DNA from: a virus
Lineage: Duplodnaviria; Heunggongvirae; Uroviricota; Caudoviricetes
IMG/VR virus record: IMGVR_UViG_2693429557_000011
Length of the DNA: 29,524 bases
Reading direction: 5' to 3' (one strand)
A program made the position numbers and the translations under genes. A model generated the notes under the pieces. It worked only from the letters and a program-made list of their open reading frames with translations, was not told the DNA's origin and did not search any database. Position 1 is the stretch's first letter. Each line of letters starts with the position of its first letter. This document shows positions 4,149 through 13,608 of the stretch, piece by piece.

Positions 4149-5126
4149 TTACATTCCTCCCAAGGGATTAAACCTCACCGCATCCTGCAAGTAATCCGGC
4201 GCAAGATGGGCATAAATCATCGTTGTCTGAATCTTTGCGTGCCCCAGAATTTTCTGGAGCGTCAGAATATTGCCGCCGTTCATCATGAAATGACTGGCGA
4301 AGGTGTGGCGCAGCGCATGAACAGCCTGGCCGTCAGGAACATCAGGTGCGACCGTTTTGATGACATCGCGAACCAATGAATAATCCAGCGTCGGAAACAC
4401 CAGTTTCCCGCCCCGTTTTTTGATCTTTTCAAACAGGCTTTCAGAAATAGGAACGGTACGGTTTTTGCTGTTCTTCGTTTTTGAAAAAGTGATTCGACAA
4501 TGAAGAACACGGCGCTGCTCCAGTGCCGCTACCTCGCCCCATCGCGCCCCGGTCGACAGAAGGATTTCGACGGCCAGCCGTTCATCGGGATTTTCAGCCA
4601 GTGCATCCAGCAACTGAACACATTCAGACTTACTCAGATATCCCATTTCACGCTCGTTAACCTTCATTCCTTTAAGGCCTTGAACGGGGTTATCGTTAAG
4701 AAAATGGCCGGATGAGATGAGTGCGGTAAACATCGCGCTTAACGCCCCAATCTCTCGATTTATGGTGCTGGGCTGTATCCCCTGCTCTATCCTGGACACA
4801 CGTAGCTCGGTGAGCATCGTTGTATTAAGTTTATGCACGCACGGGTCATCCATTGCCTCACTCAAGCGCAGCAATTTAAGGCGCGTGTTATGCCCTGACT
4901 TCATTAGCTGGCCGTGGTATTTCCACCACAAGTCAATAAGCACTGACAGCGGACGGCGATCAATGGAGTTTCCTTTCCACTCATTGTTATGCTGTTGCGC
5001 CAGCACCCACCGCTCATATAAAACTGCATCCGATTTCGTTTTAAATTTTTTGCGAATGCGTTTGCCTTTACGCCCCTCAGGACGCATGTCAAGAAGATAC
5101 CCTCCCGGAATTGATTTTATGCTCAT
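4149..5126 (-). CDS. int: P2-type tyrosine integrase (about 325 aa, starting at the internal Met MSIKSIPGGY)
   Basis: The sequence aligns along its length with my recall of P2 Int (MAIKKLDDGRYEVDIRPTGRNGKRIRRKF vs MSIKSIPGGYLLDMRPEGRKGKRIRKKF). The catalytic region carries ARWGE, HALRH and a Y in MIYAHL. The six-frame ORF extends to 5276, but the homology starts at 5126. Confidence 0.9.
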   Translation of the reverse strand: MSIKSIPGGYLLDMRPEGRKGKRIRKKFKTKSDAVLYERWVLAQQHNNEWKGNSIDRRPLSVLIDLWWKYHGQLMKSGHNTRLKLLRLSEAMDDPCVHKLNTTMLTELRVSRIEQGIQPSTINREIGALSAMFTALISSGHFLNDNPVQGLKGMKVNEREMGYLSKSECVQLLDALAENPDERLAVEILLSTGARWGEVAALEQRRVLHCRITFSKTKNSKNRTVPISESLFEKIKKRGGKLVFPTLDYSLVRDVIKTVAPDVPDGQAVHALRHTFASHFMMNGGNILTLQKILGHAKIQTTMIYAHLAPDYLQDAVRFNPLGGM

Positions 5127-6962: not shown

Positions 6963-7166
6963 ATGGCAATTAAGCATTTTCCTGTCGTTCGTTTCACCTC
7001 CAGAGGACGTGAATACGAAGTTGACGAACGCCTGATTACCACAATCGACAAACACCGTTCAGAAAAGGATGCACATCATATCTATCTCACTGACGGCACT
7101 TACTTCTGCGCCACCAACGTGGTGCAGGTGAATCTTATCAGACAGGTACAGGAGTCACGCAGATGA
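6963..7166 (+). CDS. Hypothetical early-operon protein (67 aa, start MAIKHFPVV)
   Basis: A strong AAGGAGG RBS sits 5 nt upstream of the ATG at 6963. The longer drawn ORF starts at 6912. Confidence 0.5.
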   Translation: MAIKHFPVVRFTSRGREYEVDERLITTIDKHRSEKDAHHIYLTDGTYFCATNVVQVNLIRQVQESRR

Positions 7167-7408
7167 CCATTCTGGACTACATCGCTGCCAATCCGGGTTG
7201 TAGCAGTGGAGAAATCGCCGCAGCACTGAATACACCAACCACAACCATTAATGCGGAGCTACGCCGTCTCTGGCGCAGCGGTTTAGTCACAAGAAAAGAG
7301 CGCAAAACAGGCGGTCGCTTTTCTTATCAGGTAAACCTGATGCCGTTTGGGTGTAGCAACCCACTAACCCAGATGTTCAACCAGCTACTGAGGGAAATCA
7401 GAGCATGA
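7163..7408 (+). CDS. Small winged-helix-like DNA-binding protein (81 aa)
   Basis: It overlaps the upstream gene by 4 nt. The segment SSGEIAAALNTPTTTINAELRRLWRSGLV resembles an HTH recognition region. Confidence 0.5.
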   Translation: MTILDYIAANPGCSSGEIAAALNTPTTTINAELRRLWRSGLVTRKERKTGGRFSYQVNLMPFGCSNPLTQMFNQLLREIRA

Positions 7409-7921: not shown

Positions 7922-10744
7922 ATGACGGCAGAGTACATCAGGGACTGGCAACAACCGCGCCACGCAGTGGGGCGTGAAGGAACGGGGATCCCCGCTCCTG
8001 AATCCGCGCTTTCCTCCTGGCTGGATGCCCACCGGGCAGAGAACGAGCGCCGCCAGGAAATGGCTGATGCGGCGTTCTCCGCCACGCCACTGGGCAACCT
8101 GATTAATAAAAGCCTGGACGCACAGGAAAAACAGGACAAAACCATCACACTGGCAGGAGACGCCAGAAAACAGGCACGCGGCGCGGTGGATGAAGCCATG
8201 GCCTCGCTGCGCCTGCTGCCGTCCTATCTGCGCGATCCGCTTATTCGCCACCTCTCCTTCCTGCGCAAAAAACAGGAAGCCGATCGCCGGAAAGGCAAAA
8301 AGAGCTGGCAGGCGGAACGCTATGCACGCGGAACCCTGCGCAAAATATTCGAACGTCTGGATCGCACTGACGGACACTGGCTGACACCGGGTTATCGCTC
8401 CCTTGCCGGACGTGAACGCCTGGACGATTTGCTTTACCTGCCGCAACTCAACAAACACCAGATACAGACGCTGGCCACCATGACGGCGGCGATGTTCAGC
8501 AGCACCTTCGAAAAACTCTGCGATGGTTTTGGCGCGACTGATGGCGAGCTGACCATGGATGTAACGCTGAAGGCGTATCAGATGCTGGCCCGCATGGCGT
8601 TACACTTACACGCCATGCCTCCGCATTATGACGCACTGACAACAGACAAAGACCGGAGGCACGAACCGGACACAGAACTGCTGCCGGGCGCAATCCTTCG
8701 CCTGACCTGTGCGGAATGGTGGAAACGCAAACTGTGGCTGTTACGTTGCGAGTGGAGAGAAGAACAACTTCGCGCCGCCTGTCTGGTTTCCAGAAAAACA
8801 TCGCCCTATCTGAGCCAGGACGCGTTAAGCGAGTTTCGCGCACAGCGCGAGAAAACACGCGATTTCCTGAAAAGTTTCATGCTGGAAAATGAAGACGGGT
8901 TCACGATTGATCTCGAGACGGTGTATTACGCGGGAGTAAGTAACCCGGTTCACCGTAAGGCAGAAATGATGGCCACCATGAAGGGGCTGGAACTTCTGGC
9001 CGAAGCCCGTGGCGACAAAGCGGTGTTTCTGACTGTCACCTGCCCGTCAAAATACCACGCCACAACGGAGAACGGTCATCCGAATCCCAAATGGAACGGG
9101 GCCACAATGCGCGACTCCAGCGATTACCTGGTTAACACGTTTTTTGCGACGGTCCGCAAAAAACTGAACCGCGACGGCCTGCGCTGGTATGGCATCCGCA
9201 CGGCGGAGCCTCACCATGACGGCACCGTGCACTGGCATATGATGGTCTTTGCTCATCCGGAAGAAATCGACACCATTGTGTCCCACACCCGCGATATTGC
9301 CATTCAGGAAGATCGTCACGAGCTGGGCGATGACATAACTCCGCGCTTTAAGGCGGAGTATGTAGACGGCTCAAAAGGCACGCCAACCAGCTACATCGCC
9401 ACCTACATCGGGAAAAACCTGGACAGCCGCGCCGTGGATGGCATCGACCCGAAAACGGGCAAGCCACGCGTTGACCACGAAACCGGAAAATCAATGGCCG
9501 AGAGCGTGGAACGCGCCATCGGCTGGGCGCGCCTTCACCGGGTCCGCCAGTTCCAGTTCTTTGGCATCCCCTCCCGCCAGGTATGGCGTGAACTGCGCCG
9601 CCTTGCCAGCCAGATGGCACGCAACCCGGAAGGCCCGCAACGGCTGAAGGATGACGCAATGGATGCGGTTCTTGCCGCCGCTGATGCCGGATGTTTTGCC
9701 ACCTACATAGAGAAACAGGGCGGCGTACTTGTTCCACGCAAAGACTACCTGATTCGCACCGCCTACGACCTCGCCGATGAGCTGAACGATTACGGCGAAC
9801 AGAGCGTACAGATTTACGGGATCTGGTCACCACTCATCGGGGAATCCTCCCGTGTGTGCACGCATCCGGATAACTGGAAGCTGGTAAGACGCAAACCGGA
9901 AGCGGAAGACAGCGCCCGCGAAAATGGTTTTGACCTTCAGGGCGGCCCTGCCGCCCCTTGGACTCGTGGCAATAACTGTCCCCGTGTACAGGAAACGGAC
10001 AACAACGGGACAGAACAGCCGGAAGAACGGCCAGCACCGTGGCCGCAGCTCCCTGACGGCGTTGATGTGGATGAATGGATGCGCTCACTGAAACGGCACG
10101 AACGCCGGGCGCTGATGCGTTCGCTTCGTGACAAACAGGCAAAAAACAGCAGTGATGAAATGCAGAGCTGGACACAGAGCCGCAAACAGCAGCGGCCTTT
10201 GCCTGATAACCACGAATTACTCGCTAAAGAATGGCGGGAGTCTGCTGAATCTCTCGGCCTGCATATCGGTGAACAACAGATGCAGCACCTGTTACGGGGC
10301 GGCAGTCTGTACGTTGACGGCAGCATCATTGCACCGCAGGGATTTGAAATTGTACGCAAACCGGATACCCGCCCGGACAGCCGAATCACGCAGCTCTGGC
10401 AGCGCCTGAGCCGTAATCATGGCGTAAGCAGCACGGAGATCCGCCATAACCCGGTCGCCAGCTATCTGACACAGCTGGGGGCATCAGACCCTGAAGCCGC
10501 CGCACGCCTGGCATCCACACTTCAGCAGGACCAGAACACCATGAAAACACCCGTTACCGTGCTTTCTGACATGCTGCGCGCCATCCGCGACGCAGAGCAC
10601 GCACAGAGAATCAGTGAAACCACTGAACGCGCCCGCCGCAAAGCAGACCTGCTGCGGGGTGGCCTGACCAGTGGAAACAAAAAACAGACAGAAACGGGAC
10701 TCACGAATCCCGTAAATGAGCAAAAAACGCGCAGCGATATATGA
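7922..10744 (+). CDS. A: P2 A-type rolling-circle replication initiator (HUH endonuclease), 940 aa
   Basis: The HUH motif VHWHMMVFAHPEE is present, the protein is large, and it occupies the position of gene A in P2-like genomes. The C-terminal ~250 aa are R/Q/E-rich low complexity, and the protein is longer than my recollection of P2 A (~760 aa). Confidence 0.85.
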   Translation: MTAEYIRDWQQPRHAVGREGTGIPAPESALSSWLDAHRAENERRQEMADAAFSATPLGNLINKSLDAQEKQDKTITLAGDARKQARGAVDEAMASLRLLPSYLRDPLIRHLSFLRKKQEADRRKGKKSWQAERYARGTLRKIFERLDRTDGHWLTPGYRSLAGRERLDDLLYLPQLNKHQIQTLATMTAAMFSSTFEKLCDGFGATDGELTMDVTLKAYQMLARMALHLHAMPPHYDALTTDKDRRHEPDTELLPGAILRLTCAEWWKRKLWLLRCEWREEQLRAACLVSRKTSPYLSQDALSEFRAQREKTRDFLKSFMLENEDGFTIDLETVYYAGVSNPVHRKAEMMATMKGLELLAEARGDKAVFLTVTCPSKYHATTENGHPNPKWNGATMRDSSDYLVNTFFATVRKKLNRDGLRWYGIRTAEPHHDGTVHWHMMVFAHPEEIDTIVSHTRDIAIQEDRHELGDDITPRFKAEYVDGSKGTPTSYIATYIGKNLDSRAVDGIDPKTGKPRVDHETGKSMAESVERAIGWARLHRVRQFQFFGIPSRQVWRELRRLASQMARNPEGPQRLKDDAMDAVLAAADAGCFATYIEKQGGVLVPRKDYLIRTAYDLADELNDYGEQSVQIYGIWSPLIGESSRVCTHPDNWKLVRRKPEAEDSARENGFDLQGGPAAPWTRGNNCPRVQETDNNGTEQPEERPAPWPQLPDGVDVDEWMRSLKRHERRALMRSLRDKQAKNSSDEMQSWTQSRKQQRPLPDNHELLAKEWRESAESLGLHIGEQQMQHLLRGGSLYVDGSIIAPQGFEIVRKPDTRPDSRITQLWQRLSRNHGVSSTEIRHNPVASYLTQLGASDPEAAARLASTLQQDQNTMKTPVTVLSDMLRAIRDAEHAQRISETTERARRKADLLRGGLTSGNKKQTETGLTNPVNEQKTRSDI

Positions 10745-10794
10745 AGCGCGCACAAAACAGGCAAAAACGGGATTTCAGAATCCCGTAAACGATT
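10686..10794. promoter_or_regulatory. Two ~40-bp direct repeats, each containing a 6-bp-arm inverted repeat (acggga-N8-tcccgt), at the end of A and upstream of parM
   Basis: Copy 1 is aaaacagacagaaacgggactcacgaatcccgtaaatgag (10686-10720). Copy 2 is acaaaacaggcaaaaacgggatttcagaatcccgtaaacgatt (10752-10794). This is a candidate centromere/operator for the downstream ParR-like protein. Confidence 0.5.
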
Positions 10795-10820
10795 AATTAA
10801 TCAACATAAGGAAAAGCGAC

Positions 10821-11780
10821 ATGAAAATTTGTATCGACGACGGCTCCACCAACATCAAGCTGGCATGGACTGAGAACGGCGAACGCCGCAACGCCATCAG
10901 CCCGAACAGCTTCAAGTCGGAATGGTCTGCGCCGTTCGGTGGCATGCAGCCCGCGAACTACATGCTTGATGGCGTGCGCTATGGTTTTGATCCGGTCAGC
11001 GATCGCTTTGTCCAGACAACCGACACGCAATACCAGTACAGCGATGTAAATGTCATTGCCATTCATCACGCGCTGGTCAAATCAGGCATCACGCCACAGG
11101 AGGTGGATGTGGTTGTCACCCTGCCACTGAGCGAGTATTTCGACACAAACGCACAGCCGGACATGGCCAACATCAACCGCAAAAAAGCGAACGTTATGCG
11201 CCCGGTGGAGTACCAGAACGGCGAAGCATTCACTATCCGTAACGTGCGGGTTATGCCTGAATCCATTCCGGCTGGCTTTAAGGCACTGGCTGACATGAGT
11301 CCGTTTGAATCCCTGCTGATTGTGGATTTGGGCGGAACCACGCTGGATGTGGCAAAGGTTCAGGGGCAACTGGCAGGTATCAGCCAGGTGTTTTGCGATC
11401 CACACGTAGGCGTTTCTCTGATGGCCGATGCCGTACTGTCGGTGATGGCCACTAACGGTATGCGCACCAGTCACCACATCGCCAATACCATTATCGAACA
11501 TCGCCATGATGAAGCCTGGCTGCGCCAGCACATCCACAATGACGCGCATTACGCCAGCCTGATGGCGGTTATTCGTGAAAAGGAAGAAACACTGAAACAA
11601 CGCGTGATCCGCGCGCTGGCGGGTTTTTCGGGTTACGGGCGGGTGATGGTTGTCGGTGGAGGGGCGGAGATTGTGGCACCCGCTATCCGCGAAGCCTGCG
11701 GAGTTAATGCGACTTTCATCGCGGACGGGGTGCCACAGTTTGCTCTGGTTAATGGGCTGTACGCAATGGACAAGGAGTAA
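10821..11780 (+). CDS. parM: ParM/StbA-family actin-like segregation ATPase (319 aa)
   Basis: The N-terminus MKICIDDGSTNIKLAW matches my recall of the plasmid R1 ParM (StbA) N-terminus MLVFIDDGSTNIKLQW. Further actin-fold motifs LIVDLGGTTLDV and VMVVGGGAEIV are present, and the length matches ParM (~320 aa). Confidence 0.85.
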   Translation: MKICIDDGSTNIKLAWTENGERRNAISPNSFKSEWSAPFGGMQPANYMLDGVRYGFDPVSDRFVQTTDTQYQYSDVNVIAIHHALVKSGITPQEVDVVVTLPLSEYFDTNAQPDMANINRKKANVMRPVEYQNGEAFTIRNVRVMPESIPAGFKALADMSPFESLLIVDLGGTTLDVAKVQGQLAGISQVFCDPHVGVSLMADAVLSVMATNGMRTSHHIANTIIEHRHDEAWLRQHIHNDAHYASLMAVIREKEETLKQRVIRALAGFSGYGRVMVVGGGAEIVAPAIREACGVNATFIADGVPQFALVNGLYAMDKE

Positions 11781-11784
11781 ACCA

Positions 11785-12096
11785 ATGACGACACCAACCA
11801 GACGGATAAGTTTCTATCTGAAGCCTGCGGCCGTCAAGAACGAAAGCGAAGCATGCGCCTGGCTGGGCAGCCTTACACCAGAAGCCCGCAAAAGCGGCCA
11901 ACGCGTGGCTTTTCTGGCCGGGCTGGCACTTCTGAAAATGAATCCAGCAGAGGCTTACCGACTGGCTGCATGGGCTGACGATGAGGCGTTATCGGTGACA
12001 CAAACCAGGACAGAACGCCCCGTGCCACAGCCAGTACCAACCGCACAGATAACCAGTCAGATAGCAGGGAATATCCGGGCATTATTTCCTGAATGA
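11785..12096 (+). CDS. parR: ParR-like centromere-binding adaptor (103 aa, start MTTPTRRISF)
   Basis: It lies 4 nt after the parM stop with an AAGGAG RBS. Segments RISFYLKP, RVAFLAGLALLKMNP and IRALFPE resemble R1 ParR as recalled (RTIAFKLNP, RAALTAGLALYRQDP, ILRSLFPKE), and the gene order parM-parR matches R1. Confidence 0.65.
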   Translation: MTTPTRRISFYLKPAAVKNESEACAWLGSLTPEARKSGQRVAFLAGLALLKMNPAEAYRLAAWADDEALSVTQTRTERPVPQPVPTAQITSQIAGNIRALFPE

Positions 12097-12156
12097 CGAA
12101 TTTGACGGCTTTTAATTTTATCGGGGTGCACTGTCGCCCCGCACGAGGAAAACACG

Positions 12157-12681
12157 ATGAAAAAATACGAATACATGCTAATGAAAGAAGCACTGCGGGC
12201 TGGTCTGGCTCCCTGTCCTGTATCCGTAGAAGCTGTTGTTGGGAACACGATTTTCCGAACGCTGCGAAATCGCGTATCCGTGAAGATGGTTCACCAACCA
12301 CCCAAATCTACCAGCATGATCTATCTGCCGCTGCCCGAGGCTATCAAACTTATGCGTTCGCTGAAATTTGCGATTTGGATGCAGACACAAATCAACAAAG
12401 CGGTGCAAAACACCTTCGTTAAGAGACTAATACCGGAGCTTGCTGCCAGATGTGCAAAATGTACCAGACCCGCACTTCAATTTGATCTGTCATTGATTCA
12501 ACAAGCTACGGAGGCAGAACTGTACCGCCTGTCACCTATCCGTGATGCTCACACGGAAGCATCAGAAATGTTCCGGCTCATGTTTCAATTTAATTTTGCC
12601 GTTCGACGCACACGCGTTCAGGTCAATCGCATGATGCAGGAGCAGGAAGAGTTAACACAGTACAAAGGGGGCAGCCAGTGA
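12157..12681 (+). CDS. Hypothetical protein (174 aa), first gene of the hotspot cargo cassette
   Basis: The ORF has a GAGGA RBS. It is a basic protein with no motif I recognise. Its stop overlaps the next start (GTGA). Confidence 0.6.
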   Translation: MKKYEYMLMKEALRAGLAPCPVSVEAVVGNTIFRTLRNRVSVKMVHQPPKSTSMIYLPLPEAIKLMRSLKFAIWMQTQINKAVQNTFVKRLIPELAARCAKCTRPALQFDLSLIQQATEAELYRLSPIRDAHTEASEMFRLMFQFNFAVRRTRVQVNRMMQEQEELTQYKGGSQ

Positions 12682-12917
12682 GTAATTCAGCACGACTACA
12701 GCTTGGTTTTTCACCGCTATCAAAAACCATCGTATTGGCAAAAATGCGTGACTTAGGAGACGGAACAAAACGCCGCGTAGGAAATGATCGCGGTCGCGAT
12801 GTAACCAACGAGGCCGCTCAACTCGTTTGGCATCTAGTCATGGCAGAAGGCGGTGAAATTAATTGGGAGCTGGATGATGGTTCTCGTATGATTTTGAGGG
12901 CCGAGAAGAGTAAATAG
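12678..12917 (+). CDS. Hypothetical protein (79 aa), translationally coupled to the 174-aa gene
   Basis: A GTG start overlaps the upstream TGA stop. The protein is acidic and contains a W-rich segment EAAQLVWHLVMAEGGEINWELDDGS. Confidence 0.5.
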   Translation: MSNSARLQLGFSPLSKTIVLAKMRDLGDGTKRRVGNDRGRDVTNEAAQLVWHLVMAEGGEINWELDDGSRMILRAEKSK

Positions 12918-12931
12918 CTCAAGGGGGATTA

Positions 12932-13117
12932 ATGCTAAATGATGATGAAGAAGAGCTGCTTATGCAGGAATGGTCGCTCGGTGATTATGATAATGGTGAA
13001 AATGGGTGCCCGCATTGTGGCCGTTATCGTTTATGTATCTGCCAGAATGGAAAACACAGATGTGAAAAGTGCAATTGGTCTCCGGAACTTAATGACTACG
13101 TGCCGATCGAGTGGTAG
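12932..13117 (+). CDS. Small Cys-rich zinc-ribbon protein (61 aa)
   Basis: CPHCGRYRLCICQNGKHRCEKC gives six Cys residues, including two CxxC pairs 14 residues apart. An AAGGGGGA RBS is present. It is the last gene before the non-coding cos region. Confidence 0.5.
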   Translation: MLNDDEEELLMQEWSLGDYDNGENGCPHCGRYRLCICQNGKHRCEKCNWSPELNDYVPIEW

Positions 13118-13608
13118 AGGTAAGTCACACTAGGTGTTTTTTAGTTGATTTTATAAATGCACAATAGTGCACAAATTTGCACAATTTTTTTGAACGACTT
13201 TTTGCCCTTCCGGCCCGCGTGGCGGCTGGATCCGTCAAGGATCCGTGCATGCACAAAAAAACGCGTTTTTTCTGCGCGCAGGTGACGGGGGAACAGCCCG
13301 CGTTTCAGGGGGTAAATAGCATTCCCTGAACGATGTCGCAGAGATACAACAGAATGGCTGTATTTCTCACGCTGAGCGTGAAAAAGACGTGAGGGCTTTT
13401 GATTTGATGGGGTGAAAGGTAAGGCCGTCAAAATCGCACTGAGACGGCGAGAATATGCAGTCAACGAGGTGGGATTGCGTAAGAGTCTGACTGTCGATGA
13501 TGGCAATCAGCAGGAAAGCGTCGTGAAATTATCTGACTGATACAGGAGCTGGAGAGTCGGGGCATAAATTTTTTATGCCCCGGCGAAGCAGCAGACAAGC
13601 GAAGCGCG
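13118..13608. other. Non-coding region expected to contain the phage cos site (inferred by synteny)
   Basis: This 490-bp gap sits between the hotspot genes and portal Q, where P2-like phages have cos. It contains GC-rich candidate motifs gcgtggcgg (13218) and gacgggggaacagc (13281) resembling the 186/P2 cohesive ends as recalled. A direct repeat ggatccgt-caag-gatccgt (13229) and a perfect palindrome ggggcataaa-ttt-tttatgcccc (13557-13582) are also present. Confidence 0.4.

Follow-up and report, generated by a model that had tools for sequence, protein, structure and literature searches.

A candidate type II partition centromere upstream of parM in a P2-like prophage

Background

Type II partition centromeres lie upstream of parM (PMC5016525; PMC2241845). 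The parC site of plasmid R1 is composed of two arrays of five tandem 11-bp iterons placed around a 39-bp promoter core (PMC2241845). A locus of the same type, srpMRC, is carried by the SXT/R391 elements; its centromere srpC contains four repeats of 13 bp, in direct and in inverted orientation, bound as pairs, upstream of a ParM homologue (PMC4489591). Phage D6, a P1-like plasmid prophage, encodes the ParM and ParR proteins StbA/StbB and also has repeats upstream of parM.

We report on a pair of repeats in a 29.5-kb stretch of DNA (hereafter the window), which is a P88-like (Xuanwuvirus, P2-like) prophage. The repeats lie at the junction of the replication gene A and a parM-parR pair, and an earlier note on the window had read them as a parC centromere doubling as ParR operator. 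In our analysis, a centromere is the explanation that the sequence comparisons support best, and the repeats are most likely the ParR-binding site. More precisely, the two 42-bp units, probably with a CAAAAAAC core between them, would form the parC-like cis site of a type II ParM-ParR module of the prophage, a reading to which we give a probability of about 60%.

The site resembles R1/R100 parC in its position directly upstream of a homologous parM and of a parR coding for a ribbon-helix-helix protein, in the arrangement of its repeats in two sets and in its similar distance to the start codon. The earlier note had considered the repeats to be of another type than the R1 11-bp iterons. This needs qualifying for their A/C-rich half, in which the same CAAAAC-type cores occur as in the A/C-rich 11-mers of R1/R100 parC. 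Phased A-tracts are a further likeness, R1 parC being reported as strongly curved (PMC2241845). In contrast to R1 parC, each unit of the prophage site contains a 20-bp palindrome, no promoter was detected, and a coding sequence encloses one of the units. Where R1 and pSK41 line up 8-10 iterons in tandem, the prophage has only two large units, with only about 4-7 recognisable cores, and lacks a clear tandem array of that size; the G/C triplet which follows the A-tract is GGG in the prophage and CCC in R1. The prophage and SXT/R391 both carry a type II partition locus on an element that is normally integrated in the chromosome. They differ in that SrpR has no recognisable ParR similarity, whereas the prophage ParR belongs to Pfam Plasmid_stab_B, and in that the repeat sequences have nothing in common; for srpC, validation came from EMSA and from a stabilisation assay (PMC4489591), whereas the prophage site is a candidate. 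The ParM of D6 is 48% identical to that of the prophage, but its upstream region is a ~260-bp AT-rich stretch with TCTCA-type iterons and without an AAACGG box, and its ParR strand reads RKKVMIYLRP.

Results

Genes around the repeats

Gene A (7922-10744, plus strand) encodes a P2-type rolling-circle replication endonuclease of 940 aa (Pfam Phage_GPA, 6.6e-131), which has 30% identity to P2 A. It is a neighbour of the repeat element and lies outside it, only its 3' tail overlapping unit 1. Scans of phage, plasmid and GTDB sequences for distant A relatives showed a C-terminal domain confined to this lineage, with 4 GTDB loci only. The gap between A and parM (10745-10820, 76 bp) contains the second repeat copy and the parM Shine-Dalgarno sequence AAGGA (10808-10812, plus strand), which was read from the sequence and is kept in Salmonella and Hafnia. 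The product of parM (10821-11780, plus strand) is an actin-like segregation ATPase (Pfam StbA_N, 2.7e-82; ParM_N, 1.3e-68) that matches the R1 ParM structure 1MWK (E 8.5e-93). The adjacent parR (11785-12096, plus strand) codes for a centromere-binding adaptor of 103 aa (Pfam Plasmid_stab_B, PF10784, 5e-23), a ribbon-helix-helix protein homologous to R1/R100 ParR. A phmmer search of ParR against the PDB gave no match, and only a profile reached the ParR of pB171 (2JD3, E 1.3e-3). In the ParR alignment the N-terminal strand TRRISFYLKP is invariant and the C-terminal tail NIRALFPE is conserved; the AlphaFold2 model of ParR had a mean pLDDT of 53, too low for use.

No sigma-70-like promoter passed the scan threshold in 10300-12800, in or around the repeats, and candidates read by hand were weak and unconserved (for example TGAACA-N16-TATAAG, in Hafnia only). 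On this ground the operator half of the earlier proposal is not supported, although a repressor role of the repeats is possible, as is a weak or non-canonical promoter at the repeats. parMR may be transcribed by read-through from A.

Structure and significance of the repeats

A repeat finder returned one family of two 42-nt direct copies, at 10678-10719 and 10751-10792, with 81% identity and a start-to-start spacing of 73 bp. The pair of ~40-bp direct repeats ~70 bp apart described by the earlier note is thus real and rightly placed, except that its start had been put at 10686, some 8 bases too far to the right. Repeat unit 1 (10678-10719, no strand assigned) joins an A/C-rich left half, CAAAAAACAGACAGAAAC, to the 20-bp palindrome ACGGGACTCACGAATCCCGT (10694-10713), and falls within the final 22 codons of gene A. 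Repeat unit 2 (10751-10792, no strand assigned), in the A-parM gap, joins CACAAAACAGGCAAAAAC to a palindrome at 10767-10786, ACGGGATTTCAGAATCCCGT; 29 bp separate the end of the unit from the start codon of parM, both units together spanning 29-143 bp upstream of parM. The location of one copy in the 3' end of A and of the other in the 76-bp gap agrees with what had been noted, as do the A/C-rich acag(a/g)ca(a/g)aaa motif and the ACGGGA-N8-TCCCGT of each copy. The latter two are the sole exact matches to this pattern in the whole window and supply four ACGGGA half-sites across both units. Within the spacer (10720-10750, no strand assigned) lie a third CAAAAAAC core, at 10721-10728, and the A stop codon, at 10742-10744. 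The spacer is little conserved, with 48% identity to Hafnia, and is polymorphic among E. coli relatives.

Significance was evaluated with dinucleotide shuffles of 10600-10830. The best direct-repeat score was 22, a value that none of 500 shuffles reached (mean 8.5, sd 1.1, maximum 13); two palindromes of the 6+8+6 form were observed where 0.033 were expected. The direct-repeat pair is far beyond chance. Cores of the form CA(4-7)C are also in excess (4 in 141 nt, 0.105 expected), and the AAA tracts near the repeats have a 10.5-bp periodicity that was matched in 1 of 1000 shuffles. No other repeats were found within 230 bp upstream of parM or downstream of parR. Elsewhere in the window, a second cluster of CA(4-7)C cores occurs on the minus strand (~4343-4484); it falls within a long ORF and was attributed to coding composition.

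Inheritance of the repeats with parMR

The repeats and parM are contiguous in 1290 of 5426 complete E. coli genomes. The earlier note had named repeats in P2-like phages lacking parMR as the observation that would point to gene A instead; the opposite was found, near-identical prophages without parMR having no repeats. In 40 E. coli genomes (L180 and 39 more) the same A (95% identical) is followed by an AAA-ATPase/S8-peptidase cargo and no repeats are present, and in these L180-type prophages the homology stops at ~10633-10645, just left of repeat 1. Other genes stand between A and parM in loci L262, L263 and L333-L336, where the box-bearing block described below remains with parM. In all, the repeat motif accompanies parMR in four or more distinct settings on its upstream side, and these comparisons indicate that repeats and parMR are inherited as one module. 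Integration in a chromosome was recorded in 1441 of 1443 places; a plasmid-type centromere has no obvious job in such chromosome-integrated copies.

Identity between the window and Hafnia is 54% for the 3' end of A and 50% for 10645-10677, and then 81% for unit 1, 86% for unit 2 and 88% for parM (70% at parM third codon positions, E. coli against Hafnia). The A gene of Hafnia stops within the loop of palindrome 1, in a different frame, yet a palindrome (GGGATT-N4-AATCCC) and the 73-bp spacing are retained, which argues that the repeats are constrained as nucleotides, independently of the reading frame of A. Among E. coli relatives, A-run indels move the frame of the A tail; the repeat cores are nearly invariant across 81 distinct E. 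coli junctions.

Three coding interpretations of the region were examined and rejected. Duplication of the A C-terminus as coding sequence is contradicted by the Hafnia stop in another frame and by the A-run indels that shift the tail. Of 92 distinct junctions, 85 keep a 26-aa mini-ORF (10716-10796) open, but the ratio of polymorphic sites at its first, second and third codon positions, 10:15:14, shows no bias, and the frameshift present in Hafnia is compensated. For a programmed -1 frameshift at the A-run, with the hairpin downstream of it, the zero-frame heptamer C AAA AAA is non-canonical and the tail is unconserved in any frame.

Boxes and ParR strand type

AAACGG(G) boxes occur upstream of parM in 11 of the 11 loci read in which the ParR strand is (R/K)ISFYLKP: E. 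coli, Salmonella, Hafnia and eight Serratia/Enterobacter-type loci (L177, L261-L263, L333-L336), of which L177 has a ParM 58% and a ParR 38% identical to those of the window. Two exact direct boxes are found in eight of the 11, at ~-121 to -129 and at -56 or ~-40, with a spacing of 73 or 83-84 bp; in Salmonella, Hafnia and L335 a single box is exact and the other deviates by one base (AAGCGG or AAATGG). Iterons of other kinds, and no AAACGG, were seen at three loci with other ParR strands (D6, L264 and an IncFII plasmid). The match of box to ParR strand is a correlation across two independent clades only. The left part of unit 2, ACAGGCAAAAACGGGA, is identical at 16 of 16 positions in the Serratia-type locus L179/L261. 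Serratia-type relatives keep AAAAACGGGA and not the short palindrome, with GGGAAC and GTTCCC arms ~60 bp apart, so the hairpin-like part is not what is conserved across clades. This recurrence of AAACGG in a second clade whose ParR shares the strand, the co-inheritance described above and the conservation of the repeats in either frame of A support the centromere half of the earlier proposal.

A co-variation of the repeats with parR at related A-parM junctions, which had also been suggested, is not visible. The repeats do not differ where ParR is at 54% identity, and among close relatives ParR drops to 40% identity with the repeats unchanged. Since the N-terminal strand that would read the DNA is invariant, the comparison is without power among close relatives, and it is only because of this invariance that the unchanged repeats fit a centromere.

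Alternative explanations

The earlier note had offered the origin or nick site of gene A as an alternative, and the repeats could be conceived as part of that origin or as a single-strand priming signal for rolling-circle replication. The P2 ori does sit inside A. The P2 nick site, GCGCC^TCGGAGTCCTGTCAATAACTGT, has an annotated position to which the predicted ori nick-site region of the window, GCCGCCCCTTGGACTCGTGGCAATAACTGT (9950-9981, plus strand), is homologous. This region is only ~740 bp upstream of the repeats, but it is away from them, and the origin reading was rejected because of that position. The same A and ori are moreover found without repeats in the 40 E. coli genomes, and in other clades the element stays by parM where genes intervene between A and parM; we therefore regard this explanation as extremely improbable. 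A pair of tandem Rho-independent terminators on the minus strand, stopping antisense read-through (for example from the leftward portal-terminase late operon) before A, would account for a terminator scan that flags both units on that strand (8 pairs, 4 G-C, T-rich tails), for hairpin folding energies of -10.2 and -10.4 kcal/mol and for the recurrence of an AAAAAC-plus-palindrome grammar in Serratia loci with different palindrome sequences. Such terminators would have no client: no minus-strand gene was found over the 2.8 kb between parM and the portal gene, and the gene preceding the element shares the strand of parM in each of the contexts read (A, methylase, small ORFs). Prophages with the same A and other cargo have no equivalent structure. 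The stem sequences are conserved and do not co-vary, although the 0 compensatory pairs in 35 distinct units are uninformative at such low divergence; the common variants A10767G and C10784T give A-C mismatches in the minus-strand hairpin, and ACAGRCA is conserved where a terminator needs no specific tail. Terminators are thus unlikely. Stem-loops in a plus-strand A-parM-parR mRNA, acting in processing or stability or tuning parM translation, are another possibility: on the plus strand, pairing is kept in 95% of stem cells, frequent variants become G-U wobbles, and the 131-nt plus strand folds at z = -5.6. Co-transcription is likely, no plus-strand terminator having been found between A and parM. 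Hairpin 1, however, lies within translated A codons in E. coli, the stems do not co-vary, no known RNA family matched in Rfam at E <= 1, and it is the AAACGGGA box, not a hairpin, that the clades have in common, all of which leaves an mRNA element very unlikely.

Palindromes beside phased A-tracts are typical of protein sites, and a promoter-operator logic for ParR was not found, so that another protein (a host nucleoid protein, or a phage regulator like Cox, C or the MarR-like protein encoded at 7163-7408) could be imagined to bind here and regulate the cargo without any centromere function. Against this, the motif is present nowhere else in the window, the immunity region included; it moves with parMR from one upstream context to another and follows the ParR strand type, and we hold such a site to be quite improbable. 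Lastly, the repeats might be a functionless scar, the upstream 3' end having been duplicated when the parMR cargo recombined in, with the copies kept by descent. The cargo slot to the right of A is indeed a recombination hotspot, and a single codon register gives a reading of both copies, as KKQTETGLTNPVNE and TKQAKTGFQNPVND. Mere descent fits poorly with units that are 81-86% identical between E. coli and Hafnia while the spacer is at 48% and parM third positions are at 70%, with the near-invariance of the cores in the 81 junctions, and with box pairs at similar spacing in the second clade. A scar is accordingly a very doubtful explanation.

Proposed mechanism

If the repeats are a centromere, the N-terminal beta-ribbon (TRRISFYLKP) of ParR dimers would enter boxes that have AAACGGGA as their basis, two direct and two inverted, which would make up both palindromes, and the flanking CAAAAC-type cores would perhaps also be bound by ParR. 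The boxes would share one face of the DNA in a stretch of ~115 bp that is A-tract-phased and probably bent, with 7 helical turns between the units. Clustered in this way, ParR would offer its conserved C-terminal tails (NIRALFPE) to ParM filaments at their growing end, and the filaments would separate DNA copies by pushing, as they do for plasmid R1. What is partitioned would be phage genomes in the form of excised or episomal circles.

Implications for the prophage family

The prophage family is found in 1304-1372 of 5426 complete E. coli genomes, about a quarter, O157:H7 included. Judged from the comparisons made here, its repeats are most likely an ordinary kind of element, a type II centromere, in an unusual host, a P2-like prophage. 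The compact candidate centromere overlaps the end of a replication gene; the nick site predicted for rolling-circle replication is ~740 bp away. By analogy with SXT/R391, integrating P2-like prophages might keep a working ParMRC to partition excised or not-yet-integrated circles during a transient phage-plasmid phase; we put this forward tentatively, as a rather unlikely account. A whole phage genome is recorded as a 34.5-kb circular 'plasmid', which, if true, would be a glimpse of an episomal state.

Should ParR bind the repeats, a centromere would be defined for the ParMRC of one of the commonest E. coli prophages, and a compact natural type II centromere, two units partly within coding sequence, would be available for comparison with the 10-iteron R1 model. 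Interference of the chromosomal centromere copy, or of its ParR, with plasmids using a related ParR/parC would then become testable, as would an episomal phase of the phage and the question of why an integrating, rolling-circle phage retains a plasmid segregation machine.

Prophage context and repeat structure

The window is a P2-like prophage of the P88 / Xuanwuvirus group; its gene order is the same as in the P88 annotation, and 10300-11300 is matched by fourteen phage records at 96-99% identity. Gene A (7922-10744; 940 aa, Pfam Phage_GPA) is followed by genes for the actin-like ParM (10821-11780) and for ParR (11785-12096, Plasmid_stab_B). The solved R1 ParM structure was matched by the window ParM (E 8.5e-93), and the solved pB171 ParR (2JD3) was reached by a profile of ParR relatives (E 1.3e-3). 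An 81-aa winged-helix ORF (MarR/HTH_24-like) is located at 7163-7408, in the early region upstream of A.

A single repeat family was returned by the repeat finder: two 42-nt copies, at 10678-10719 (unit 1, within the last 22 codons of A) and 10751-10792 (unit 2, in the 76-bp gap ahead of parM), 81% identical and 73 bp apart. Each contains ACGGGA-N8-TCCCGT, a pattern with no other exact match in the window. Against dinucleotide shuffles, the direct-repeat score of 22 was reached in 0 of 500 (mean 8.5 +/- 1.1, maximum 13), and two palindromes were observed vs 0.033 expected. The earlier note describes the repeats correctly. The palindromes (10694-10786) have one common sequence and are mutually complementary; in a 131-nt single strand, pairing of one unit with the other in a long-range duplex (-38.7 kcal/mol, z about -5) is favoured over a local hairpin in each.

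One codon register accommodates both copies, and a 26-codon ORF (10716-10796), uninterrupted in 85 of 92 distinct junctions, spans unit 2. A coding role in the shared register was rejected: in a Hafnia relative (L164), the stop codon of A falls, in another frame, within the loop of palindrome 1, and GGGATT-N4-AATCCC and the 73-bp spacing are kept nonetheless. The mini-ORF was also rejected, its polymorphic sites being distributed 10:15:14 over codon positions 1, 2 and 3, with a compensated frameshift in Hafnia. Among relatives, including those in E. coli, one-base indels in an A-run (10679-10684) shift the frame of the last ~20 codons of A. The Hafnia frame change, these indels and the mini-ORF site pattern place the constraint on the repeats at the nucleic acid level and not on protein. 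Judging by the frame changes, the C-terminal tail of A (10676-10744) is apparently dispensable.

Association of the repeats with parMR

The prophage family is very common: of 5426 complete E. coli genomes, 1372 match 10200-11400 and 1304-1372 are counted as carriers (O157:H7 EDL933 included), nearly every copy being chromosomal (two plasmid places); the repeats and the 5' end of parM are contiguous in 1290 of those genomes. The earlier note, which proposed that the repeats are the parC centromere, held that their presence in P2-like phages without parMR would contradict this. The reverse was seen. In 40 genomes the same A gene is followed by an AAA-ATPase/S8-peptidase cargo in place of parMR; L180, the one of these that was read completely, has the A 3' stretch in common with the window at 95% identity and lacks both the palindromes and the A/C-rich motif; its homology to the window ends near 10633-10645, immediately to the left of unit 1. 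In one genome (L332), unit 2 and parMR are replaced by an ead/Ea22 gene and unit 1 is retained, as would be expected if the deletion had to preserve A.

Identity between the window and Hafnia is 54% at the A 3' end, 50% over 10645-10677, 81% in unit 1, 48% in the spacer, 86% in unit 2, 78% over 10793-10820 and 88% in parM (70% at third codon positions). Together with the L180 break, this profile places the left edge of the parMR module at that of unit 1, and both units are conserved above the near-neutral rate. An origin or nick site of A, the alternative offered for the repeats, is rejected on the evidence of the existence of A without repeats and of the position of the homologue of the annotated P2 nick site (GCGCC^TCGGAGTCCTGTCAATAACTGT), at 9950-9981, about 740 bp upstream. 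This predicted rolling-circle nick site, assigned by homology to the P2 ori, sits in a conserved GPAAPWTRGNNCP coding stretch of A.

The slot right of A (about 10645-13150) is a cargo hotspot, occupied in different relatives (L180, L332, L177, L263, L336) by parMR with small ORFs, by the pair of AAA-ATPase and S8 peptidase, or by an ead/Ea22 gene; parMR may have a D12-type methylase before it, and parR a Fic protein after it. A terminator-like site on the plus strand (13167-13182), running into a T-run, lies at its right edge. One record, a circular "plasmid" of 34,461 bp from an E. coli isolate (NZ_CP148288.1), is a whole P88-like phage genome that spans integrase, A, parM, parR, terminase and tail genes; it could reflect an episomal state, or else an excised circle captured by assembly.

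Conservation across ParR types

Serratia/Enterobacter-type P2-like prophages encode ParM and ParR 58% and 38% identical to those of the window (measured in L177), with a ParR strand (NRKISFYLKP) nearly the same as the N-terminal strand of the window protein. In L179/L261 parM comes directly after A; in L177, L262, L263 and L333-L336 a methylase gene or small ORFs, all in the same orientation, lie between the two. A conserved upstream block starting at AAAAACGGGAAC always accompanies parM in this clade, and 16/16 bases of ACAGGCAAAAACGGGA are common to L179/L261 and the left part of window unit 2. Every one of the 11 loci read whose ParR has this type of strand shows AAACGG(G) boxes upstream of parM. 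In eight, the box is present as two exact direct copies, the first at about -121 to -129 and the second at -56 (window) or about -40, with a spacing of 73 or 83-84 bp, equal to 7 or 8 turns of the helix; in Salmonella, Hafnia and L335, one box is exact and the other differs by one base. AAACGG was not found in D6 phage (RKKVMIYLRP), L264 (RRKIQFYINP) or an IncFII plasmid (NRKCSFYIYP), which have their own short iterons instead.

Within the E. coli family, ParR identity goes down to 40% with the repeats unchanged; since the first 30 residues and the C-terminal tail NIRALFPE are constant, this variation neither supports nor contradicts the parC reading. The gene (11785-12096) is mosaic amid otherwise 99%-identical neighbours, the middle going down to about 54% between these constant ends, which implies recombination breakpoints within parR.

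The Serratia/Enterobacter-type upstream region is a more elaborate version of that of the window. In L261-L263 and L333-L336, the stretch from about -120 to -50 relative to parM contains a 19-bp inverted repeat, GGGAACGAAACAGAAAAAT (perfect in L335, imperfect in the other such loci read). About 28 bp separate the two arms, between which lies a small hairpin that differs in sequence between clades (GCCG/CGGC vs AGCC/GGCT), and conserved TTTAAACGGC and TTTCATRACC follow. Between A and the methylase gene of L177 (Serratia quinivorans, 4632-4710), there are two identical CACAGACAAAAACA motifs with a palindrome after each, GCCACCtGGTGGC in one case and GGCTGTAgTACAGCC in the other; this A/C-rich plus palindrome grammar is that of the window repeats, with different sequences.

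Alternative functions and comparison with known centromeres

Each unit looks like an intrinsic terminator on the minus strand. Against this reading, none of the relatives has a minus-strand gene that ends at the units, nothing equivalent is present in prophages with another cargo, the stems are conserved in sequence with zero compensatory changes, and common variants would mismatch the minus-strand hairpin. The units might instead form a structure in plus-strand mRNA, but E. coli translates hairpin 1, and both covariation and an Rfam match are absent. The operator role also suggested for the repeats is unsupported because the promoter scan found no sigma-70-like promoter around them; parMR may be transcribed by read-through from A.

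In type II systems the centromere is found upstream of the operon, in continuous or split form (PMC5016525). R1 parC (159 bp), a strongly curved site, has five 11-bp iterons on either side of a promoter core of 39 bp, and each iteron takes up roughly one ParR dimer (PMC2241845); R100 iterons, as read from sequence, are A/C-rich 11-mers with CAAAAC cores. The window has four cores of this type in 141 nt (CAAAAAAC at 10678 and 10721, CAAAAC at 10753, CAAAAAC at 10762) vs 0.105 expected, and its AAA tracts are periodic at 10.5 bp (1/1000 shuffles). In its A/C-rich half, each unit is therefore similar to R1 iterons, so that the "different repeat type" of the earlier note does not wholly apply; the palindrome contributes further, inverted copies of the ACGGGA box. 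The SXT/R391 elements provide a precedent for ParMRC on a chromosomally integrated element; their centromere consists of no more than four repeats, direct and inverted, which are bound as pairs (PMC4489591).

Judged by where it lies, its inheritance with parMR as one module, the conservation of its boxes across clades and its likeness to R1 parC, the element is most likely, with a probability of roughly 60%, the parC-like centromere of the prophage ParMR system, with ParR binding and partition activity as its predicted functions.
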